Below are positions 6,074 to 35,242 of a stretch of DNA of 41,483 nucleotides, one piece after another. Source of the stretch: a virus (Duplodnaviria > Heunggongvirae > Uroviricota > Caudoviricetes); IMG/VR virus record IMGVR_UViG_2565956725_000003, positions 1-41,483 of that record; one strand, given 5' to 3'. Under the pieces are notes generated by a model. That model searched no databases. It saw only the letters and a program-made list of their open reading frames with translations, and was not told the origin of the DNA. Made by a program: the position numbers and the translations under genes. Position 1 is the first letter of the stretch. Each line of letters starts with the position of its first letter.

Positions 6074-6176
6074 GTTAAATCTCCAGATAGTCGCAGCACC
6101 CGTTGCGCCGCATATCTGGTTATTCTATTACCTGAAAAACCACATATGGATAGAAAGACTGTAAATACGAATAGAT

Positions 6177-6193
6177 ATTACCTTTCGGGTAAT
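6177..6193. promoter_or_regulatory. operator-like 17-bp palindrome ATTACC-N5-GGTAAT (copy 1)
   Basis: ATTACCTTTCGGGTAAT, perfect 6+6 inverted repeat, in the divergent region between the tailspike start and the SOS-box ORF. Confidence 0.6.
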
Positions 6194-6229
6194 TTGCAAA
6201 ACGTGCTGGATAGCAAACAAATTATTTGA

Positions 6230-6249
6230 TACTGTATAAATATACAGTT
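6230..6249 (+). promoter_or_regulatory. LexA (SOS) box inside a sigma70-like promoter
   Basis: TACTGTATAAATATACAGTT matches the CTGT-N8-ACAG consensus; sits between TTGATA (6226-6231) and TATTAC (6249-6254), 20 nt upstream of the ORF at 6269. Confidence 0.8.
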
Positions 6250-6268
6250 ATTACATGGAGAAGATAAG

Positions 6269-6526
6269 ATGCAGCAGTATCACTATCCACTGGAAGACGG
6301 ATTTACCGAAAGGATTCACACGCCGGGAGGCGTCAGGTCACTGGTGGAGGGATCGCACTTGATGAAATTACTCCGGGATCTCGATAAGGATGGATTTAAT
6401 GTCGATGGCCCACTTGCCGAACTGACTGCACTGATTAACTACGTCACCAGCTCACAGATGTCTATGCAGGATCTGCAAACACATCTCGACTATTGTGCCG
6501 AACAATTACGAAAGCAAACCAGATAA
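6269..6526 (+). CDS. small SOS-controlled protein, paralogue of the Bro protein C-terminal domain (candidate antirepressor)
   Basis: 85 aa, RBS GGAG; aligns with the last ~65 aa of the 6840..7532 product (shared IH-P-GV, LM-LL, DG-V-G, AELT, QTH-Y). Confidence 0.7.
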   Translation: MQQYHYPLEDGFTERIHTPGGVRSLVEGSHLMKLLRDLDKDGFNVDGPLAELTALINYVTSSQMSMQDLQTHLDYCAEQLRKQTR

Positions 6527-6556
6527 GGTTTGCAATTACCAAGTGGAGTGCTTATA

Positions 6557-6573
6557 TTTACCTTTGCGGTAAA
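6557..6573. promoter_or_regulatory. operator-like palindrome (copy 2) nested in a larger inverted repeat
   Basis: TTTACCTTTGCGGTAAA, flanked symmetrically by GGAGTGC (6545-6551) and GCACTCC (6582-6588). Confidence 0.55.
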
Positions 6574-6665
6574 TTTACATCGCACTCCTCTTGTGCCATA
6601 GTAATCGGGCACTGGCAAAATCCAGTGCCGGGATTGGTCTCCCGGATTACTACAGAGGCACATAT

Positions 6666-6686
6666 GCCGCATAAGCGGTTTTTTTA
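6666..6686 (+). terminator. weak terminator-like hairpin plus T-tract
   Basis: CCGC-ATAA-GCGG followed by TTTTTTT; short stem. Confidence 0.3.
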
Positions 6687-6839
6687 TGTGTAAAGCGCAC
6701 CTATTCTATGGTGGGCTGTGTGGGGGCACCGAAAGGTGCGCCGGGTTCCTTTGTAGCCGGTAAGACCAACTCTGCACAGTTCACCACCATCTGATTGGTC
6801 TCAGCGGTGGTGATTAACCTAACTACAAAGGTGATCGCC

Positions 6840-7532
6840 ATGAATACCAAACCTTCCATCTTTTCCTTTGAGTCATCCTGCCAGATCCGTATGTTCATGA
6901 TTGACGGAGAACCTTGGTTTGTCACCAAAGATGTGTGCAATGCTTTGAATATTGATGTTACACAAGCGAGAAAACTTGATAAAAAAGGCTGGAACAAAAA
7001 GGGGCTGTATTCAATACAGACCCCTGGTGGAATACAAGAACTATCCATCGTTTCAGAATCAGGTCTCTACATCCTTATTCTGCGTTGCAAAGAGGCAATG
7101 ACAGAGGGAACGAGAGCATTCAGATTTCTTGAATGGGTTACAGGTGAGGTTCTTCCTCAGATCCGCCGCACCGGAAGTTACATTAAAAACTCGCTCCCGC
7201 AGGAAGAACGCATAAAGATGGTTGCCGACCAGGTAGCCAACGCCACGGCGTCAGCAGTAATGCAGGCGATGAAGATAGAGAACAAAACCTACAGTGCCCC
7301 GCTGAAGCCCGGCTACCGCAGCCTGATTCACTCGCCGTCTGGTGTTCTCGGCCTGACGGAGAACTCACTGCTGATGAATCTGCTGAACCAGTTACAGGAA
7401 GACGGGCACGACGTATCGGGCGCGGCGGCGGAACTGACCACCATGTTCTGCTACATCGTCGGTGTGAGTAAATGCCTGCGTGATATCCAGACCCACGCGG
7501 AATACATCAACGACAAGGCAGGGGTCTTCTGA
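6840..7532 (+). CDS. Bro-N domain protein (antirepressor-like)
   Basis: N-terminal Bro-N signature (FSFESSCQIRMFMIDGEPWFVTKDVCNALNI ... GLYILILRC ... FLEWVTGEVLPQIRRTGSY); start at ATG 6840 with RBS AAAGGTGA. Confidence 0.85.
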   Translation: MNTKPSIFSFESSCQIRMFMIDGEPWFVTKDVCNALNIDVTQARKLDKKGWNKKGLYSIQTPGGIQELSIVSESGLYILILRCKEAMTEGTRAFRFLEWVTGEVLPQIRRTGSYIKNSLPQEERIKMVADQVANATASAVMQAMKIENKTYSAPLKPGYRSLIHSPSGVLGLTENSLLMNLLNQLQEDGHDVSGAAAELTTMFCYIVGVSKCLRDIQTHAEYINDKAGVF

Positions 7533-7541
7533 CAGAACGGC

Positions 7542-7568
7542 GGCACAGGGATGTGCCTTTAAATAATT
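7542..7568 (+). terminator. terminator-like hairpin after the Bro gene
   Basis: GGCACA-GGGA-TGTGCC followed by TTTAAATAATT. Confidence 0.4.
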
Positions 7569-7597
7569 CTGTACAGATTGCAGGTGAATAGCGTACT

Positions 7598-7614
7598 ATT
7601 ACCCCAAAGGTAAG
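7598..7614. promoter_or_regulatory. operator-like palindrome (copy 3)
   Basis: ATTACCCCAAAGGTAAG upstream of the two-gene cassette; further GTAAC-N13-GTTACC half-sites at 7626-7650. Confidence 0.55.
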
Positions 7615-19476: not shown

Positions 19477-20084
19477 CAGGACAACCTCGCAATGGTAAAC
19501 TCATCAACCGGTGGCTGTGGTTCCTGTGATTCATTCTGGCTATGCGAGCCAGCACTAAGAATCACGCGATTGTACATATTGAGGGCAAACGTACCGAGGT
19601 CTGCATTCCCAGTCAGCGCCATGTTAATAGCTGCCGCAAGACGCCAGGCCAACGCCTCCATAAAAATGGCATCAAACATGTTCACATCTGTAACGCGAGA
19701 GACATACTTGAGCCATGCCTGCGGCTGGTCTGTGTAGATCAACTTTCCTGTTCCGTTGGTGTCTGCACCAACTTCGTACTGAACGCGCATTGCTGCTGTT
19801 GGATTGCGTACACCAGGAAGCATAATTTCAGTAATGCGCAGACAATCGGACGGGTACTGATACGCATATTCCCAGTCAGGCGGTGGATTGCTCGTATCTG
19901 CAAGCGCCACGCGTTTGGTAGCAAAGTTCCAGTCAAAATCAGAAAGCACAGCATCACGGCAGGCCTCAAAGTGCAGCGAACATTCCCCCGCTTCCTTGCT
20001 GGCTTCCGTCAGGCTGTTAATGCTGCGGCTATTGCCAATATTGGACAGCGCACGATTACAGATCTCTACTACAGAGGCCATCAC
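19476..20084 (-). CDS. tail tubular protein A-like (adaptor/gatekeeper)
   Basis: 202 aa; N-terminal pattern resembles T7 gp11 as recalled. Confidence 0.55.
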   Translation of the reverse strand: MMASVVEICNRALSNIGNSRSINSLTEASKEAGECSLHFEACRDAVLSDFDWNFATKRVALADTSNPPPDWEYAYQYPSDCLRITEIMLPGVRNPTAAMRVQYEVGADTNGTGKLIYTDQPQAWLKYVSRVTDVNMFDAIFMEALAWRLAAAINMALTGNADLGTFALNMYNRVILSAGSHSQNESQEPQPPVDEFTIARLS

Positions 20085-25270: not shown

Positions 25271-25287
25271 TATTACCTTTCAGGTAA
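25271..25287. promoter_or_regulatory. operator-like palindrome (copy 4)
   Basis: ATTACCTTTCAGGTAAC, 15 bp downstream of a TTGACA hexamer (25250-25255), upstream of the tRNA and of the portal operon. Confidence 0.55.
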
Positions 25288-25609: not shown

Positions 25610-25686
25610 GTGGCATTAGCTCAGTTGGACAGAGCAACCGCCTTCTAAGCGGTTGGTCGCAGGTTCGAATCCTGCATGCCACGCCA
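25610..25686 (+). tRNA. tRNA-Arg (anticodon UCU), phage-encoded argU-like
   Basis: Hand-folded cloverleaf with 7-bp acceptor stem, D and T arms, anticodon loop CTTCTAA, discriminator G and encoded CCA; core resembles argU. Confidence 0.9.
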
Positions 25687-26351: not shown

Positions 26352-27827
26352 TTAAGCATAGGGATCGTAATCTGTGATGGCCTTGCCTTGCTGGTTCTGC
26401 TGCCCGGGAATTCGCAGACGCTTAGACACAGGGAACGCAAACGTCAGCAGTAGCGCATCGCCTTTACCCGGTGAACGCCCAAGCCGCTCCTTGATATCTT
26501 CCTTCGGTTCGATAACGATTTTACCGTCCACTCGAACTTTGTACTCTGCCGCCGACAGGTCGTCTGCTGTTTCCTGGTCATCCAGCATGCCGCCAAGCCT
26601 CAGCCATGTCTTGCATGAATTGAACATCTCCCCACGCTTGTTGAGCATCTGCGGGTCAGTAGACGCGCCACCGAACGGAACAAGTTGCCATGTACGACCC
26701 CAGCCGTCACCGATTGACTTCAGACCGGTTCCGTAACCGAAGTCGATGAACACCGCGTCAGCCTGATACTGGTCTTCAAAGTCAGCGATACGCTTCGCCA
26801 TAATCAGATCGTCAGTGGTCTTGTTGCCAGTCCATAGCACCTTACTATGCAACCCCTGCCGCAGGTATATCACCGCGTCATCAACGCCTGAATATGCCGG
26901 GTCAACACCGATTATCACCGGAGCATGTGCCACCTGCGCAGCGGTTACCACCCGTTTCATTGCCTCATCAGTAAGACCGGTAGGGATAAACTGCAATTCA
27001 GATGCATCAGGGAATATGCCGCGCACACGGATTTTAACGAAGTCGCTGTCTTCCCCGTAGTCATCAACCCATTTCTGCAACTGCTGTTTGTTAGTACCTT
27101 CCACCGTCCGGCTGTCAATCTGCGCAGTTTTCCAGCGGTGTTTGTATTTGCGGAAACATTCGCGAAAACGCCCGGTATTACGTGTAGGGTTTCCGAACGC
27201 CACCCAGATAATCTCAGTGTCTTCGTCCGTAAGCGCACCCTCAGCAACTTCCCACACCAGATCCGCAATGTTCGACGCTTCATCGAATACCACGATGATG
27301 CGTTTGCGCTCGTTGTGTAGTCCGGCGAATGCCTCAGTGTTGTGCTCAGACCAGGGGATTGCGTCAGCTCGCCACCGCTTGTCGTGCCCAGGATCATTGC
27401 TGTACATCGCGGTAGCGGTACAGGTAAACCAGTCTTTCGTGATAGCAAGGTTCGACCACTTGATAATTTCCGGCCAGGTCTTCGTTCGTAGCTGGTTGTC
27501 GGTGTTGGCGGTCACCACGACCTTACAATCCTCGCAAGTGGACATGCCCCAGTTGATCAACATTGAGATGAATGCTGATTTACCAATACCGTGGCCCGAA
27601 GCACGTGCCAGCATAAGCGGCTGATAGCGCGTCTCTGGATTCTGCAGGTGATCACGTATCTCTCGGAACGCATCAGCCTGCCACTGACGTGGGCCGGTGG
27701 CATGTGCCAGTTCAGTCCCCTCTTCCCCCCAAGGGAACGCATAGAGGACATAGCCAAGCGGATCGTGAGTGAACCCTGCAATATCCTCGATCAACTGCTC
27801 TTCAGGAGATAACGCTGTATCTGTCAC
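26352..27827 (-). CDS. terminase large subunit
   Basis: 491 aa immediately downstream of the small subunit with overlapping stop/start. Confidence 0.85.
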   Translation of the reverse strand: MTDTALSPEEQLIEDIAGFTHDPLGYVLYAFPWGEEGTELAHATGPRQWQADAFREIRDHLQNPETRYQPLMLARASGHGIGKSAFISMLINWGMSTCEDCKVVVTANTDNQLRTKTWPEIIKWSNLAITKDWFTCTATAMYSNDPGHDKRWRADAIPWSEHNTEAFAGLHNERKRIIVVFDEASNIADLVWEVAEGALTDEDTEIIWVAFGNPTRNTGRFRECFRKYKHRWKTAQIDSRTVEGTNKQQLQKWVDDYGEDSDFVKIRVRGIFPDASELQFIPTGLTDEAMKRVVTAAQVAHAPVIIGVDPAYSGVDDAVIYLRQGLHSKVLWTGNKTTDDLIMAKRIADFEDQYQADAVFIDFGYGTGLKSIGDGWGRTWQLVPFGGASTDPQMLNKRGEMFNSCKTWLRLGGMLDDQETADDLSAAEYKVRVDGKIVIEPKEDIKERLGRSPGKGDALLLTFAFPVSKRLRIPGQQNQQGKAITDYDPYA

Positions 27828-28420
27828 TGATTACCATCCTGACGTTCTTTGAGTCGCTTCCTGGCTGCTGCTATGCGATCAGCAATTGTCACATTCACAT
27901 TAACATCCAGACGTTCTTTGAACGCGTTGACATCAACATGCTTACCAATCAGCTCAAGGTTCTTCACCTTGTCAGGCCATTTAATTTTTTTGAGGATTGT
28001 CTCTATCGAATCCTCGTTCATGTTCATGATGGTCGATGACAGATCAAAGCCACTAAGCGTAGTGCGCCAGATTTTCGGCCACTCGCGGATTGGCTTAAGG
28101 CTCCCATCGTCGTTGAGGATGTCGATCACGTCCATCTGGTCGATCTCCACCAGGCGCATGAGAACGTAATCAGCACTGACGCGCATTCGTTTGTTGCGCT
28201 CTTCCATCAGCTCGGCAATCCGTTTTTGAATGCGTTCATCGCGCATCATGACACTGGCTTTAACTGCCGCTGTATTTGGGGAGAATCCTGCGTTAATCGC
28301 TGCCTGAGTCTGGTTTTCAGGCGTTTTGATGTATGACTGGCAATAAGCCTCCTGCATTGCTGTTAGTGGCTTAAATTGCGTTGATTTGCGTTTATAGGTT
28401 TTAGGTTCAGCAGGCATCAT
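27824..28420 (-). CDS. terminase small subunit
   Basis: About 198 aa from ATG 28420/28417; helix-turn-helix-like KPLTAMQEAYCQSYIKTP...TQAAINAGFS; the ORF-track N-terminal extension is rejected. Confidence 0.75.
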   Translation of the reverse strand: MMPAEPKTYKRKSTQFKPLTAMQEAYCQSYIKTPENQTQAAINAGFSPNTAAVKASVMMRDERIQKRIAELMEERNKRMRVSADYVLMRLVEIDQMDVIDILNDDGSLKPIREWPKIWRTTLSGFDLSSTIMNMNEDSIETILKKIKWPDKVKNLELIGKHVDVNAFKERLDVNVNVTIADRIAAARKRLKERQDGNQ

Positions 28421-28436
28421 AACCACCGTGGTAATA

Positions 28437-28453
28437 GTTACCGTTGTGGTAAT
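28437..28453. promoter_or_regulatory. operator-like palindrome (copy 5) just upstream of the terminase small subunit
   Basis: GTTACCGTTGTGGTAAT within a GGTAATAGT direct repeat, 17 bp from the start codon. Confidence 0.55.
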
Positions 28454-32102: not shown

Positions 32103-32119
32103 TTTACCTCTGAGGTAAT
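32103..32119. promoter_or_regulatory. operator-like palindrome (copy 6)
   Basis: TTTACCTCTGAGGTAAT overlapping the RBS/start of the 31756..32100 gene. Confidence 0.5.
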
Positions 32120-32164
32120 TAAAAACCACATAAGACATGAAATCAATAGAGTTTATAATATTTT

Positions 32165-32181
32165 GTTACCTAACAGGTAAT
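32165..32181. promoter_or_regulatory. operator-like palindrome (copy 7)
   Basis: GTTACCTAACAGGTAAT, 62 bp from copy 6, in the gap downstream of the P-like gene. Confidence 0.55.
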
Positions 32182-32994: not shown

Positions 32995-33796
32995 CCCACA
33001 CCCCTTCTATCCAGTCAGTGTTATTCCAGTCAAGCTCATCGCTTTTCCCGGCATTTTTTGATTTTCCCCTGATATGATTTACGTGCCTGGCGAATTTTTG
33101 TTCCCACTGAACCTGCGTGAACACTTTGCCCTCAGCCATCCAGTAATCCCGGAATGCAGCAAGTTCAGCAGGTGTAAATTCCGGTTCCGGCAGGGCCGTT
33201 CCCCACAGCGCAGCACGCCGCCGAAAATCTGGCGACGGTAGCCAGCCATCTGTCATCGGAAATTTCCCGATGGGTTCACTCAGGCCATCCAGAAATTCAG
33301 GTTCTGCCACCTGCAACGGCGTACTGTTCGCTTCACTGGTCGGAGCACCCTCGCGCACGTGCGCTATGTGTGGGGTTTTATATATATCTTCCTCTTCCTC
33401 TTCCTCTGGTAACTCCTTTTGTAACGCTGTTGGCGTTACTTTTTGCGTTACTCGTTTTCGATGCTCTGCCACTCTTCTATTCGTAAGTGCACGTTTTTTC
33501 GATGATTCTCCATTATGTCGCTCAAAGTTTGGAAGAATTAGTTTGCCGTCATGATAAGCAAGCCATCCGACGCTAATGAGGGCGTCAGCAAATCCTGTAA
33601 TAAAAGCGAGTCTATCAAGTACTCCTTTTGTAACGCTGCCAGCGTTACCGTCTATTGTTTGCTGGTCAGCCCATGCCCATATACGAACCAGCTTTCCAAG
33701 AACAGCATCTGGATCAATACCCAGAATTTCTGCTATCTGAAAAATTTCAGGTTTATCAGGAGTGATAACTTCAACCTTAATCCAGCTGCTTGCCAT
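32966..33796 (-). CDS. replication initiator (O-like)
   Basis: 276 aa from the second ATG (RBS AGAGGGG); acidic linker; C-terminal DnaT-like segment; ori-like palindromes lie inside the gene. Confidence 0.65.
   Translation of the reverse strand: MASSWIKVEVITPDKPEIFQIAEILGIDPDAVLGKLVRIWAWADQQTIDGNAGSVTKGVLDRLAFITGFADALISVGWLAYHDGKLILPNFERHNGESSKKRALTNRRVAEHRKRVTQKVTPTALQKELPEEEEEEDIYKTPHIAHVREGAPTSEANSTPLQVAEPEFLDGLSEPIGKFPMTDGWLPSPDFRRRAALWGTALPEPEFTPAELAAFRDYWMAEGKVFTQVQWEQKFARHVNHIRGKSKNAGKSDELDWNNTDWIEGVWDEINSRTSQ
33412..33648. repeat. ori-like iterons: two 19-bp palindromes GTAACGC-N5-GCGTTAC within an 18-bp direct repeat
   Basis: 33421-33439 and 33630-33648, each preceded by ACTCCTTTT; extra half-site GCGTTAC at 33445-33451; A+T tract 33376-33389; all inside the O-like gene linker. 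Confidence 0.55.
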
Positions 33797-33989
33797 AGGT
33801 TTCCCCTCTTGCACTCTTTAGTGCGCAAGCAAATTCATTACGATGGCGGTTGGCGCTATTCATTGCACATTCAACACATGTTCCGTTCAGAACATACCTT
33901 TCAGAGAGATGGCCGTGACGGCACCGCTTTCCTGTGAAATAGCGATTTAACCCGGCTTTTGCGGCCTCCATTCTGGTTACTATCTTCAA
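33777..33989 (-). CDS. small zinc-ribbon-like protein
   Basis: About 70 aa, start ambiguous (TTG 33989 or ATG 33971); CRHGH...CVEC motif; between the cro-like and O-like genes. Confidence 0.4.
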   Translation of the reverse strand: MKIVTRMEAAKAGLNRYFTGKRCRHGHLSERYVLNGTCVECAMNSANRHRNEFACALKSARGETYGKQLD

Positions 33990-34137: not shown

Positions 34138-34368
34138 TCATGAGTAGAAGAAGTATGCCAGTTCTGCTTTTGAGCGCAGCCATTGTCTTGTTTTACAGGC
34201 TTTAAAAAGCCCATTCATCAATACTTTACCTGGCATTTTGCGCTTACCTGTTAAGTGAGTCTGGATATAGTGACTCGTCGTTCCGGCTTCCTGTGCGAAG
34301 GCTTCACGCTCATCCGGAGTAAGTGCAAGCCAGTGCTTTTTGAAATCGAAATGTCCGTTATCGCTCAT
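34138..34368 (-). CDS. Cro-like / YdaS-family HTH regulator
   Basis: 76 aa, divergent from the repressor gene across the operator-bearing intergenic region; HTH segment TSHYIQTHLTGKRKMPGKVL. Confidence 0.6.
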   Translation of the reverse strand: MSDNGHFDFKKHWLALTPDEREAFAQEAGTTSHYIQTHLTGKRKMPGKVLMNGLFKACKTRQWLRSKAELAYFFYS

Positions 34369-34434
34369 AGCTATTGCCTGATATTTATTTCAGATAATAA
34401 ATATTCACCCATAAGGTAACAAAAATCAAGGATA

Positions 34435-34451
34435 GTTACCTGTGGGGTGCA
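34435..34451. promoter_or_regulatory. operator-like site, imperfect (OR2-like)
   Basis: GTTACCTGTGGGGTGCA; left half conserved, right half GGTGC; tandem with copy 8. Confidence 0.45.
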
Positions 34452-34468
34452 TTTACCTGTTGGGTAAT
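34452..34468. promoter_or_regulatory. operator-like palindrome (copy 8, OR-like)
   Basis: TTTACCTGTTGGGTAAT in the 154-bp region between the divergent cro-like and repressor genes; GGTAAC half-site at 34415-34420. Confidence 0.65.
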
Positions 34469-34522: not shown

Positions 34523-35107
34523 ATGAAAAGTATCCAGGACGTCCGCAGGCAAAATCTCAACGACTTGATCGACCGTGAATTCAATGGTGTTCAGACGCGG
34601 ATGGCAGAAAAACTTGGAACTCAGGCAAATCTGGTAAACCGCTGGGCTCTTGGCAAGAAGGTTATCGGCGACCAGGTTGCACGAAAAATTGAAGCTGCCG
34701 CCAATAAACCCCGTAACTGGCTTGATATTGATCGTTCGCTTTCTCAGGAGGGTTTTCAGCCTGTCGGCCCGAGCGATATAGGTCAGCTGGCGGCTCACAA
34801 CCTGGAACGCTGGATGAGCGAAAGCCGCGACCTTTCAACACAGGGAAAACTTCACCGCGCATCCGGCGTCGCCCAGGTGACAATCAGCCGCCTGTTAAAC
34901 AATGAGGTCAGCGTTTCCATTTCCACCCTGGAGAATGTTGCATCCGCATTCGGGCGTCACGGATATGAACTACTAATTCACCCGCACGACCCTGCGACTA
35001 TCAACTATGACCGCTCGCGCTACGCATTGTTACCCGAAGCCGAGAAAGCAAAGATCGAAAGTTACATTGAATTTGTCATCAACCAGAACGAAAAAAACAA
35101 ACAATAA
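34523..35107 (+). CDS. prophage repressor, dual HTH, no autocleavage domain
   Basis: 194 aa; two HTH-like segments (residues about 10-60 and 95-150); no S24 peptidase motifs; divergent from the cro-like gene; followed by a strong terminator. Confidence 0.7.
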   Translation: MKSIQDVRRQNLNDLIDREFNGVQTRMAEKLGTQANLVNRWALGKKVIGDQVARKIEAAANKPRNWLDIDRSLSQEGFQPVGPSDIGQLAAHNLERWMSESRDLSTQGKLHRASGVAQVTISRLLNNEVSVSISTLENVASAFGRHGYELLIHPHDPATINYDRSRYALLPEAEKAKIESYIEFVINQNEKNKQ

Positions 35108-35129
35108 AATCATATTTTTCAGTAAGTAA

Positions 35130-35152
35130 GCCGCCTTCTGGCGGCTTTTTTA
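35130..35152 (+). terminator. rho-independent terminator after the repressor gene
   Basis: GCCGCC-TTCT-GGCGGC followed by TTTTTTATT. Confidence 0.8.
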
Positions 35153-35163
35153 TTGCCTGTTCG

Positions 35164-35180
35164 ATTACCTGATAGGTAAT
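35164..35180. promoter_or_regulatory. operator-like palindrome (copy 9, OL-like)
   Basis: ATTACCTGATAGGTAAT, perfect, 19 bp upstream of TTGACA at 35199-35204. Confidence 0.65.
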
Positions 35181-35198
35181 TTTTTTAACTCATATCTA

Positions 35199-35227
35199 TT
35201 GACATCAAACCAAATACGCATAATTAT
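35199..35227 (+). promoter_or_regulatory. candidate early promoter (pL-like)
   Basis: TTGACA, 16-17 bp spacer, TAATTA/AATTAT; the -10 overlaps palindrome copy 10. Confidence 0.45.
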
Positions 35228-35242
35228 TACCTCAACGGTAAC
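35226..35242. promoter_or_regulatory. operator-like palindrome (copy 10)
   Basis: ATTACCTCAACGGTAAC overlapping the candidate -10; extra GGTAAC half-site at 35250-35255. Confidence 0.6.

Follow-up and report, generated by a model that had tools for sequence, protein, structure and literature searches.

A probable non-cleavable, antirepressor-relieved lysogeny repressor in a phiV10-type Uetakevirus genome

Introduction

The stretch of DNA considered here, all 41,483 nucleotides of the IMG/VR virus record IMGVR_UViG_2565956725_000003 (hereafter the window), carries on its plus strand, at 34523..35107, an open reading frame (ORF) of 194 codons that starts with ATG and has the coordinates already given in a first-pass annotation made from the letters alone. 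Its product, Rep, is very probably the repressor that maintains lysogeny in an E. coli prophage of the phiV10 type (Uetakevirus), an orthologue of the Rep proteins of phages SPC32H and epsilon15, non-cleavable and relieved by an antirepressor. The gene is flanked by a divergent cro-like gene and a PL-like promoter. Some twelve ATTACC-N5-GGTAAT palindromes overlap or adjoin promoter elements, in a geometry shared by seven related phages. This is a known system: for close relatives the fold, the partner, the logic of induction and the operators have all been described, and a protein differing in a single residue has been tested functionally; the first-pass observation is confirmed and its interpretation essentially correct. 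The residual novelty is modest and concerns the isrK/C4/Bro-N::Ant module of phiV10-type phages and the basis of immunity specificity. For the gene itself a firm annotation can be offered: Rep, a Uetakevirus repressor that is not cleaved but inactivated by an antirepressor under SOS control. The prophage is predicted to be SOS-inducible via LexA and Ant, and its immunity region and about twelve operators can be mapped by motif.

Identity of the rep product

Rep is 99.5% identical to phiV10 gp40 and to ORF21 of phage ZX5 (193/194 residues, the sole difference being A173T), essentially the same protein. Identity amounts to 78% with the homologue of Enterobacter phage Tyrion, 45% with those of Klebsiella Uetakeviruses, and 42% with those of epsilon15, SPC32H and SPN1S; a database search returned homologues in 86 clusters, the named ones all from Enterobacterales genomes, and repressor PHROGs were matched by Rep as well. 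Across the immunity region, the window shares 97-98% identity with a set of Uetakevirus phages of E. coli that includes phiV10, TL-2011b, phiv142-3 and vB_EcoP_ZX5, and its left 9.3 kb matches the same set. Overexpression of ZX5 ORF21 eliminated free phage, while endolysin transcripts fell by 99.99% and those of holin by 99.97% (PMC9782041). In that paper, SPC32H and LexA are unmentioned, operators appear only in a general statement, and the protein is not connected with SPC32H Rep, LexA, the small Ant or the operators. The GenBank note on phiV10 gp40 reads 'putative transcriptional repressor; two helix-turn-helix motifs'.

In domain searches, the whole protein matched Pfam HTH_3, a helix-turn-helix (HTH) family, in two stretches with an E value of 1.2e-9 (38.5 bits versus a gathering cut-off of 23), which places it in the XRE/HTH_3 superfamily, and residues 21-61 matched a YdaS-type HTH of Pfam. 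Scanned alone, residues 84-194 passed the HTH_3 cut-off (25.8 bits versus 23), whereas the first 80 residues stayed below threshold (YdaS_toxin, 20.5 bits versus 30; HTH_3, 16 bits versus 23). The two HTH-like segments described at first reading are thus recovered both by the two HTH_3 stretches and by the scans of the separate halves. No match to Peptidase_S24 was obtained at E ≤ 1 in either Pfam or NCBIfam, so that an S24 domain of the self-cleaving LexA/lambda CI type, with its Ser-Lys dyad and Ala-Gly site, is not indicated for Rep. The domain search that had been proposed for HTH_3/XRE and S24 accordingly gave the former and not the latter, and the initial statement that Rep lacks S24 architecture stands, both in these profile searches and in the all-helical model described below.

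The record of phage BP9 names the Rep homologue 'plasmid maintenance system antidote protein VapI', and Rep itself gives a weak match to TIGR02607 (HigA) of 18.7 bits, so that an accessory XRE-family regulator or a HigA/VapI-type antitoxin, rather than a master repressor, had to be considered. Such a role is highly improbable: the TIGR02607 score is far from the cut-off of 47.7, so that membership in HigA/VapI is not indicated, no toxin gene is adjacent (rep is flanked by the cro-like gene on one side and, on the other, by a terminator with PL behind it), the immunity region showed no further candidate for a repressor, overexpression of the ZX5 protein stops lytic growth (PMC9782041), and gp38 of epsilon15 is labelled 'repressor' in its GenBank record. 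HigA/VapI-antitoxin, LacI-like, TreR-like and RstR-like identities were all rejected with scores far under the cut-offs. On this reading, names such as VapI antitoxin or generic HTH regulator, as applied to Rep in database records, represent mis-naming.

Architecture of Rep

A phmmer search of PDB sequences returned 5d50_A ('Repressor', E 4.1e-42) over Rep residues 1-190 and 5d4z_A over the C-terminal half, and BLASTP against SPC32H Rep gave 42% identity with an E value of 2e-53, which establishes homology over the full length. The respective entries are entitled 'Crystal structure of Rep-Ant complex from Salmonella-temperate phage' (5D50) and 'Crystal structure of Repressor from Salmonella-temperate phage' (5D4Z, Rep 92-198). 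An AlphaFold2 (AF2) model of the Rep monomer, built from 31 homologues with a mean pLDDT of 77.8, is all-helical without a beta-rich domain; in Foldseek its top matches were solely chains of 5D50 and 5D4Z, and the C-terminal half aligned to 5d4z_H with a TM score of 0.81 and a root-mean-square deviation (rmsd) of 2.9 Å. The model consists of a four-helix N-terminal part (4-59), a five-helix middle part (84-151) and a helical C-terminal tail (164-193), joined by low-confidence or disordered linkers at 74-83 and 157-162. At the level of the predicted fold, the three-part architecture of SPC32H Rep, and of the near-identical epsilon15 gp38, both likewise devoid of S24, thus appears to recur in the window protein. 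Identity to SPC32H Rep is 53% in the N-terminal part, 32% in the middle and 45% in the tail, whose motif I-x-YD-x3-Y-x-x-LP-x2-EK-x-KI-x-S[YF]I-x-FV is common to both proteins.

For SPC32H Rep, a passage of PMC9986798 describes an N-terminal DNA-binding domain (DBD), a middle dimerisation domain and a C-terminal CAD/TetDloop that tetramerises and binds Ant. According to passages of PMC9638917, SPC32H Rep is a tetramer on DNA, with the DNA-binding dimer pairs drawn from different dimers; the dimeric form binds DNA weakly, and tetrameric Ant grips two Rep dimers and splits the tetramer.

Antirepressor gene and LexA box

The ant product has 87% identity to SPC32H Ant and matches the product of an unnamed ZX5 ORF at every residue (100%). 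The LexA box TACTGTATAAATATACAGTT, 20 nt upstream of ant, agrees with the E. coli consensus at 18/20 positions, contains an exact CTGT-N8-ACAG, and is the sole site in the window with ≤3 mismatches to that consensus, none being expected by chance. It fills the spacer of a promoter, Pant, for which our own reading gives a -35 hexamer TTGATA (6226-6231) and a -10 hexamer TATTAC (6249-6254). Box and flanking intergenic region are kept in four phages, namely the window phage, phiV10, SPC32H and epsilon15. The window thus holds a cognate small Ant gene under a LexA box, the arrangement of the SPC32H type, and the fit with a LexA-controlled candidate antirepressor elsewhere in the genome, anticipated at first reading, is substantiated by the PDB match of its product (Table 1) and by the uniqueness of the box. 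A second LexA-like box at 6159-6174 (1 mismatch) was rejected, as it is not conserved in phiV10, SPC32H and epsilon15.

A microcin that damages DNA induced phiV10-species prophages 21- to 47-fold (bioRxiv 10.64898/2026.05.26.727859), which independently supports SOS inducibility. This inducibility would also be expected if Rep were a repressor of the lambda CI/LexA kind, undergoing RecA-stimulated self-cleavage by a cryptic protease. Such a scheme is extremely unlikely and close to refuted, given the lack of an S24 match at E ≤ 1, the all-helical predicted fold and the presence of a LexA-controlled ant; moreover, the homologue is reported to be inactivated by Ant rather than by cleavage, and according to PMC7380047 Ant is produced after LexA self-cleavage and blocks the repressor via protein-protein interaction. 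The reading of Rep as a non-cleavable repressor is the one followed here. Kim & Ryu (2013) reportedly found that SPC32H Rep stays uncleaved during SOS induction and that the phage becomes virulent-like when the LexA box of ant carries a point mutation.

Conservation of Ant is far above that of its target: between the window and SPC32H, Ant is 87% identical, Rep 42% and the Ant-binding tail 45%. From this disparity between Ant and Rep it is tentatively suggested that Ant might cross-induce heteroimmune Uetakevirus prophages.

Operators and promoters

Allowing ≤1 mismatch, the palindrome TTACC-N5-GGTAA occurs 13 times in the window versus 0.73 expected, a number reached in 0/100 shuffles; with the flanking A/T bases, the sites become 17-bp ATTACC-N5-GGTAAT palindromes. 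The GenBank record of epsilon15 (AY150271.2) contains seven 'protein_bind: repressor' features, all of them ATTACC-N5-GGTAAT. A scan of seven Uetakevirus genomes (window, phiV10, ZX5, Tyrion, BUCT711, epsilon15 and SPC32H) found 8-11 exact operators per genome at the same syntenic places, with conserved spacings of 62, 18 and 48 bp. The sites occur at OR, at OL and at other syntenic promoters, as in the SPC32H type, and the 17-bp palindromes with their fixed 5-bp spacer are, to judge from sequence, likely the operators of Rep.

The tripartite layout of OR, between the cro-like gene and rep, is kept in phiV10, Tyrion, epsilon15 and BUCT711, and all three sites align across clades. The cro-like gene, equivalent to phiV10 gp41 and epsilon15 gp39, has a leftward promoter (TTGTTA-17-TATTAT, 34422..34394) with which the first operator overlaps. 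A scan for a sigma-70 promoter of rep found none, and our own reading of TTTACC-18-TAAATT is weak. Downstream of rep, PL consists of a -35 hexamer TTGACA (35199-35204), a 17-nt spacer and a -10 hexamer AATTAT (35222-35227), the final T of which is base 1 of the proximal operator; 19 nt separate the distal operator from the -35 hexamer. The OL region aligns across clades, and the centres of the operator pair are 62 bp apart in the seven genomes except for BUCT711, where the distance is 63. The same build, i.e. distal operator, 19 nt, -35, 17 nt and a -10 whose last T opens the proximal operator, is shared by the promoter upstream of the DUF1064 gene (-35 TTGATT, 32146-32141; 17-nt spacer; -10 TTTAAT, 32123-32118), and its 62-bp operator pair, located after the replication genes, is kept in 7/7 genomes.

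Further sites lie outside these control regions. The pair directly upstream of the small-terminase gene (terS) is present in 5/7 genomes, including phiV10, ZX5, Tyrion and epsilon15, and the epsilon15 site is annotated 'protein_bind repressor'. In the stretch 6074-6230, which includes the site between tail fibre and ant, a scan for a leftward tail-fibre promoter found none. The palindrome at 2949-2963 (1 mismatch) was treated as chance, which is probable because it lies inside a gp23-like ORF and has no syntenic counterpart; relatives have a site about 110 bp upstream of the gp23-like gene, where the window and ZX5 have none. A one-mismatch palindrome of the ATTACCTTAAAGGTATA type, conserved in relatives, is found just upstream of the integrase gene and near attP (26870-26884 in the related record L001, 26960-26974 in L002, 26882-26896 in L003, 8026-8040 in L004 and 28568-28582 in L005); the corresponding position would fall past the right end of the window, which stops at the integrase start codon.

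Table 1. Positions of the features discussed, counted from the first nucleotide of the window; operators are candidate Rep sites assigned by motif.
Feature	Position	Strand	Remark
ant promoter (Pant) and LexA box	6226..6254	+	LexA box at 6230-6249
ant, 85-aa antirepressor	6269..6526	+	PDB 5d50_E 'Anti-repressor protein', E 4e-47
Operator, tail-fibre/ant intergenic region	6178..6192		also in phiV10, SPC32H, epsilon15; epsilon15 repressor site 19895-19911
Operator abutting -35 of putative isrK promoter	6558..6572		34-37 nt upstream of isrK 5' end in window, phiV10, ZX5, Tyrion
isrK-type small RNA and terminator	6609..6685	+	Rfam RF01394, 74.7 bits vs gathering score 50
C4-type antisense RNA	6704..6791	+	Rfam RF01695, 78.6 bits vs gathering score 45
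Second antirepressor, Bro-N plus Ant-like C-terminal domain, 230 aa	6840..7532	+	Bro-N, E 1.7e-13
Operator downstream of Bro-N::Ant gene	7599..7613		ZX5 equivalent site 978-992
Operator upstream of head-gene block, single	25273..25287		epsilon15 syntenic repressor site 2931-2947
Adjacent operators directly upstream of terS start, 18 bp apart	28420-28434 (1 mismatch); 28438-28452		
Promoter upstream of DUF1064 gene, PL-like geometry	32104..32180	-	operators 32166-32180 and 32104-32118
cro-like gene, 76 aa, divergent from rep	34138..34368	-	phrog_35 'transcriptional repressor', E 5.6e-13
OR, three operators between cro-like gene and rep	34405-34419; 34437-34451; 34453-34467		TCACCCATAAGGTAA; TTACCTGTGGGGTGC (degenerate right half); TTACCTGTTGGGTAA
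rep, probable prophage repressor	34523..35107	+	orthologue of phiV10 gp40, ZX5 ORF21, SPC32H Rep
Rep residues 1-72, N-terminal four-helix HTH, putative DBD	34523..34738	+	AF2 helices 4-19, 24-31, 35-43, 50-59
Rep residues 84-152, middle XRE/HTH_3 fold, putative dimerisation domain (MDD)	34772..34978	+	HTH_3, AF2
Rep residues 153-194, C-terminal tail, putative tetramerisation and Ant-binding part (CAD/TetDloop)	34979..35104	+	conserved motif
Intrinsic terminator 3' of rep	35128..35147	+	annotated in phiV10 too
OL/PL	35165..35241	+	operators 35165-35179 and 35227-35241, centres 62 bp apart

Which HTH reads DNA

The first-pass annotation had envisaged a tandem-HTH repressor on 17-bp palindromes with a fixed 5-bp spacer; palindromes and spacer are real, and the idea of two DNA readers is probably wrong. 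The recognition helix of the N-terminal domain (approximately residues 35-43, ANLVNRWAL) contains an NLVNRW segment that is identical in the Rep proteins of the window, Tyrion, BUCT711, epsilon15 and SPC32H, and N36, R40 and W41 are invariant among the 31 homologues. This conservation tracks the invariant TTACC half-site and agrees with the literature, which makes the N-terminal domain the favoured DBD; with just 5-6 bp per half-site, one recognition helix for each is to be expected. The second HTH of Rep would then most likely be an oligomerisation module instead of a second DNA reader, by analogy with the middle domain of SPC32H Rep, which is described as a dimerisation domain.

Several observations weigh against this picture and against the assignment of Rep as a whole. 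The middle domain has the better HTH_3 signature of the two, and in the 31 homologues its residues Q118 and R123 are (nearly) invariant and Q107 is kept. Overall identity to the solved homologue is just 42%, the pTM of the monomer model is 0.40, so that the domain arrangement is not predicted, the domain roles of SPC32H Rep are taken from papers that cite the primary work, and several promoters are hexamer readings rather than mapped transcription starts. A true tandem-HTH reader, in which the N-terminal and middle HTH would both touch DNA and the middle one would read the spacer, the flanks or a second site, could draw on the stronger HTH_3 score and the kept residues of the middle domain, as well as on the operator spacers: epsilon15, SPC32H and BUCT711 have A/T-rich ones, those of phiV10, Tyrion and the window are of mixed composition, and this variation with Rep clade suggests that a factor beyond the invariant NLVNRW may set immunity specificity. 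It is nonetheless unlikely, since a passage of PMC9986798 assigns dimerisation to the middle domain of the solved homologue and DNA binding to its N-terminal domain, a plain two-fold 17-bp palindrome with half-sites of 5-6 bp is the footprint of one HTH per half-site, and the 'recognition helix' of the middle domain differs between clades that share the same half-site (QVTISRLL versus PATVNRIM). With the N-terminal domain retained as the probable reader, the tempting idea of two DNA-binding HTHs is to be corrected in that the better HTH sequence match corresponds to the dimerisation domain of the homologue and the weaker match to the DNA reader. All Rep clades combine the same TTACC half-site and NLVNRW helix with differing spacers, which raises the question of immunity specificity.

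Proposed switch

From homology and the literature, the N-terminal HTH of Rep would be expected to read one ATTACC half-site, the middle HTH-fold domain to dimerise, and the C-terminal tail to make tetramers. One tetramer, offering two DBD pairs, could then hold two palindromes at once, which would explain the conserved 62-bp operator pairs bracketing PL and the promoter of the DUF1064 operon; 62 bp amount to about six helical turns, which would put both operators on the same side of the DNA, as a tetramer with two DBD pairs would need. Rep itself would not be cut by RecA. Upon DNA damage, LexA would cleave itself, Pant would fire, and tetrameric Ant would bind the C-terminal domains of Rep, which would come off the DNA. 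More speculatively, the three operators between the cro-like gene and rep may act as a lambda-like OR1-3 switch.

Comparison with known systems

The closest systems, SPC32H and epsilon15, belong to the same genus and share with the window phage the gene order, operators at syntenic sites and an ant controlled by a LexA box. On the other hand, the window Rep is of a different immunity type, the window spacers are not A/T-rich, and the spacing within OR is 32 + 16 bp in the window versus 30 + 17 bp in SPC32H/epsilon15. The same logic, a small LexA-repressed antirepressor acting on an S24-less repressor, is found in Gifsy-1/-3, Fels-2, 186 (Tum) and N15 (AntC), as outlined in a passage of PMC7380047. 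Repressor and antirepressor folds of the Gifsy, Fels-2, 186 and N15 systems are unrelated to those of the window. Kim & Ryu (2013) reportedly described the SPC32H-type Ant as structurally distinct from the Tum/Gifsy type.

With lambda CI, P22 C2 and LexA, the system has in common the divergent cro/repressor pair, a tripartite OR and 17-bp two-fold operators, and PL lies downstream in the same orientation. These repressors possess S24 and undergo RecA-dependent cleavage, whereas the window Rep lacks S24 and would, by analogy with its homologue, escape cleavage; unlike the lambda CI type, it would oligomerise via an HTH-fold domain and a tetramerisation tail. The window operators, in contrast to those of lambda, also occur in late and structural regions. 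A further parallel is offered by Rco of the Bacillus plasmid pLS20, a DNA-looping repressor relieved by an antirepressor, in which, likewise, the HTH DBD is N-terminal and a p53-like domain at the C-terminus tetramerises (PMC9986798). Rco lacks the middle HTH-fold dimerisation domain, however, and its tail has no detectable sequence relationship to that of the window Rep.

Second antirepressor module

Directly after the LexA-controlled ant, the window carries a module at 6558-7613 that comprises an isrK-type, Hfq-binding small RNA (sRNA), a C4-type antisense RNA and a gene for a Bro-N::Ant fusion; it is present in phiV10-type phages and absent from SPC32H, epsilon15 and BUCT711. The putative isrK promoter is composed of a -35 hexamer TTTACA (6574-6579), a 17-nt spacer and an extended TG-CATAGT element (6597-6602). 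An alternative module promoter, TTGCAA-17-TATATT at 6530-6558, was dropped in favour of TTTACA-17-TGCATAGT at 6574-6602, whose position agrees better with an isrK 5' end at 6609. The loop of C4 hairpin 2, CCTTTGTAG (6748-6756), is exactly complementary over 9 nt to CTACAAAGG (6823-6831) in the Shine-Dalgarno (SD) region of the Bro-N::Ant gene, and in phiV10 and ZX5 both partners have changed in step (CCTTTTAG with CTAAAAGG), which constitutes compensatory evidence for pairing between C4 loop and SD as in P1 immI. With a C4 RNA above its gathering score and a loop complementary to the ribosome-binding site, the module would, on sequence grounds, qualify as immI-type.

Residues 149-225 of Bro-N::Ant match 5d50_E (E 9e-14), and the C-terminal domain is about 42% identical to the small Ant. 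An in-frame TTG at 6795 is a possible upstream start. The protein is 80% identical to ZX5 ORF4, and the phiV10 copy (gp23, 194 aa) is cut short inside the Ant-like domain. Overexpression of ORF4, the Bro-N 'anti-repressor' of ZX5, reduced lysogens about 1000-fold, and no mention of the isrK/C4 module was found in the paper concerned (PMC9782041).

Rep-type palindromes flank the module at both ends, and the upstream one is centred approximately at -44 from the isrK 5' end, a position that fits repression as well as lambda-PRM-like activation. The layout resembles that of P1 immI (Op51/P51-c4-icd-ant). It also resembles isrK-orf45-anrP of Gifsy-1 (PMC4825925), and an operator at the promoter, an sRNA upstream of the antirepressor gene and an RNA loop pairing with the SD are features common to P1 immI, Gifsy-1 and the window. 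The window module differs from both by its fusion of Bro-N to a SPC32H-Ant-like domain and by its location directly after a LexA-controlled ant; its regulation is putative. It is tentatively proposed, as one possibility among others, that phiV10-type phages add a second layer, under Rep and small RNAs, to the SPC32H switch. In such a scheme, small Ant made in the SOS response would free the operator at 6558-6572 of Rep, the second antirepressor would be unleashed, and induction would become irreversible through this positive feedback; another possibility is that Rep, from its site centred near -44, activates isrK in the lysogen. Missing from the SPC32H model system, the module is the only part that might repay experiments.

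Further features of the window

Two plus-strand genes adjoin the lysis cassette, one for a glycine-zipper/TraT-like putative outer-membrane lipoprotein (1-516) and one for a DUF5384 protein (532-1071); among the matches listed, they are common only to phage TL-2011b, and they are probably morons. Terminase and head genes are separated by a tRNA gene at 25610-25683 (+), which runs on the other strand and is kept in phiV10, ZX5, SPC32H (annotated tRNA-Arg) and BUCT711. An int-alpA RNA motif (Rfam RF02996, 44 bits) is present in Enterobacter phage Tyrion (L005, 2605-2669, minus strand) and was not found in the window. A 70-aa ORF at 33777-33989 (-), downstream of the cro-like gene, belongs to phrog_1081 and is Cys/His-rich (C-x-H-G-H ... 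C-x2-C); its product, encoded where lambda has cII, is possibly a small regulator that binds zinc.

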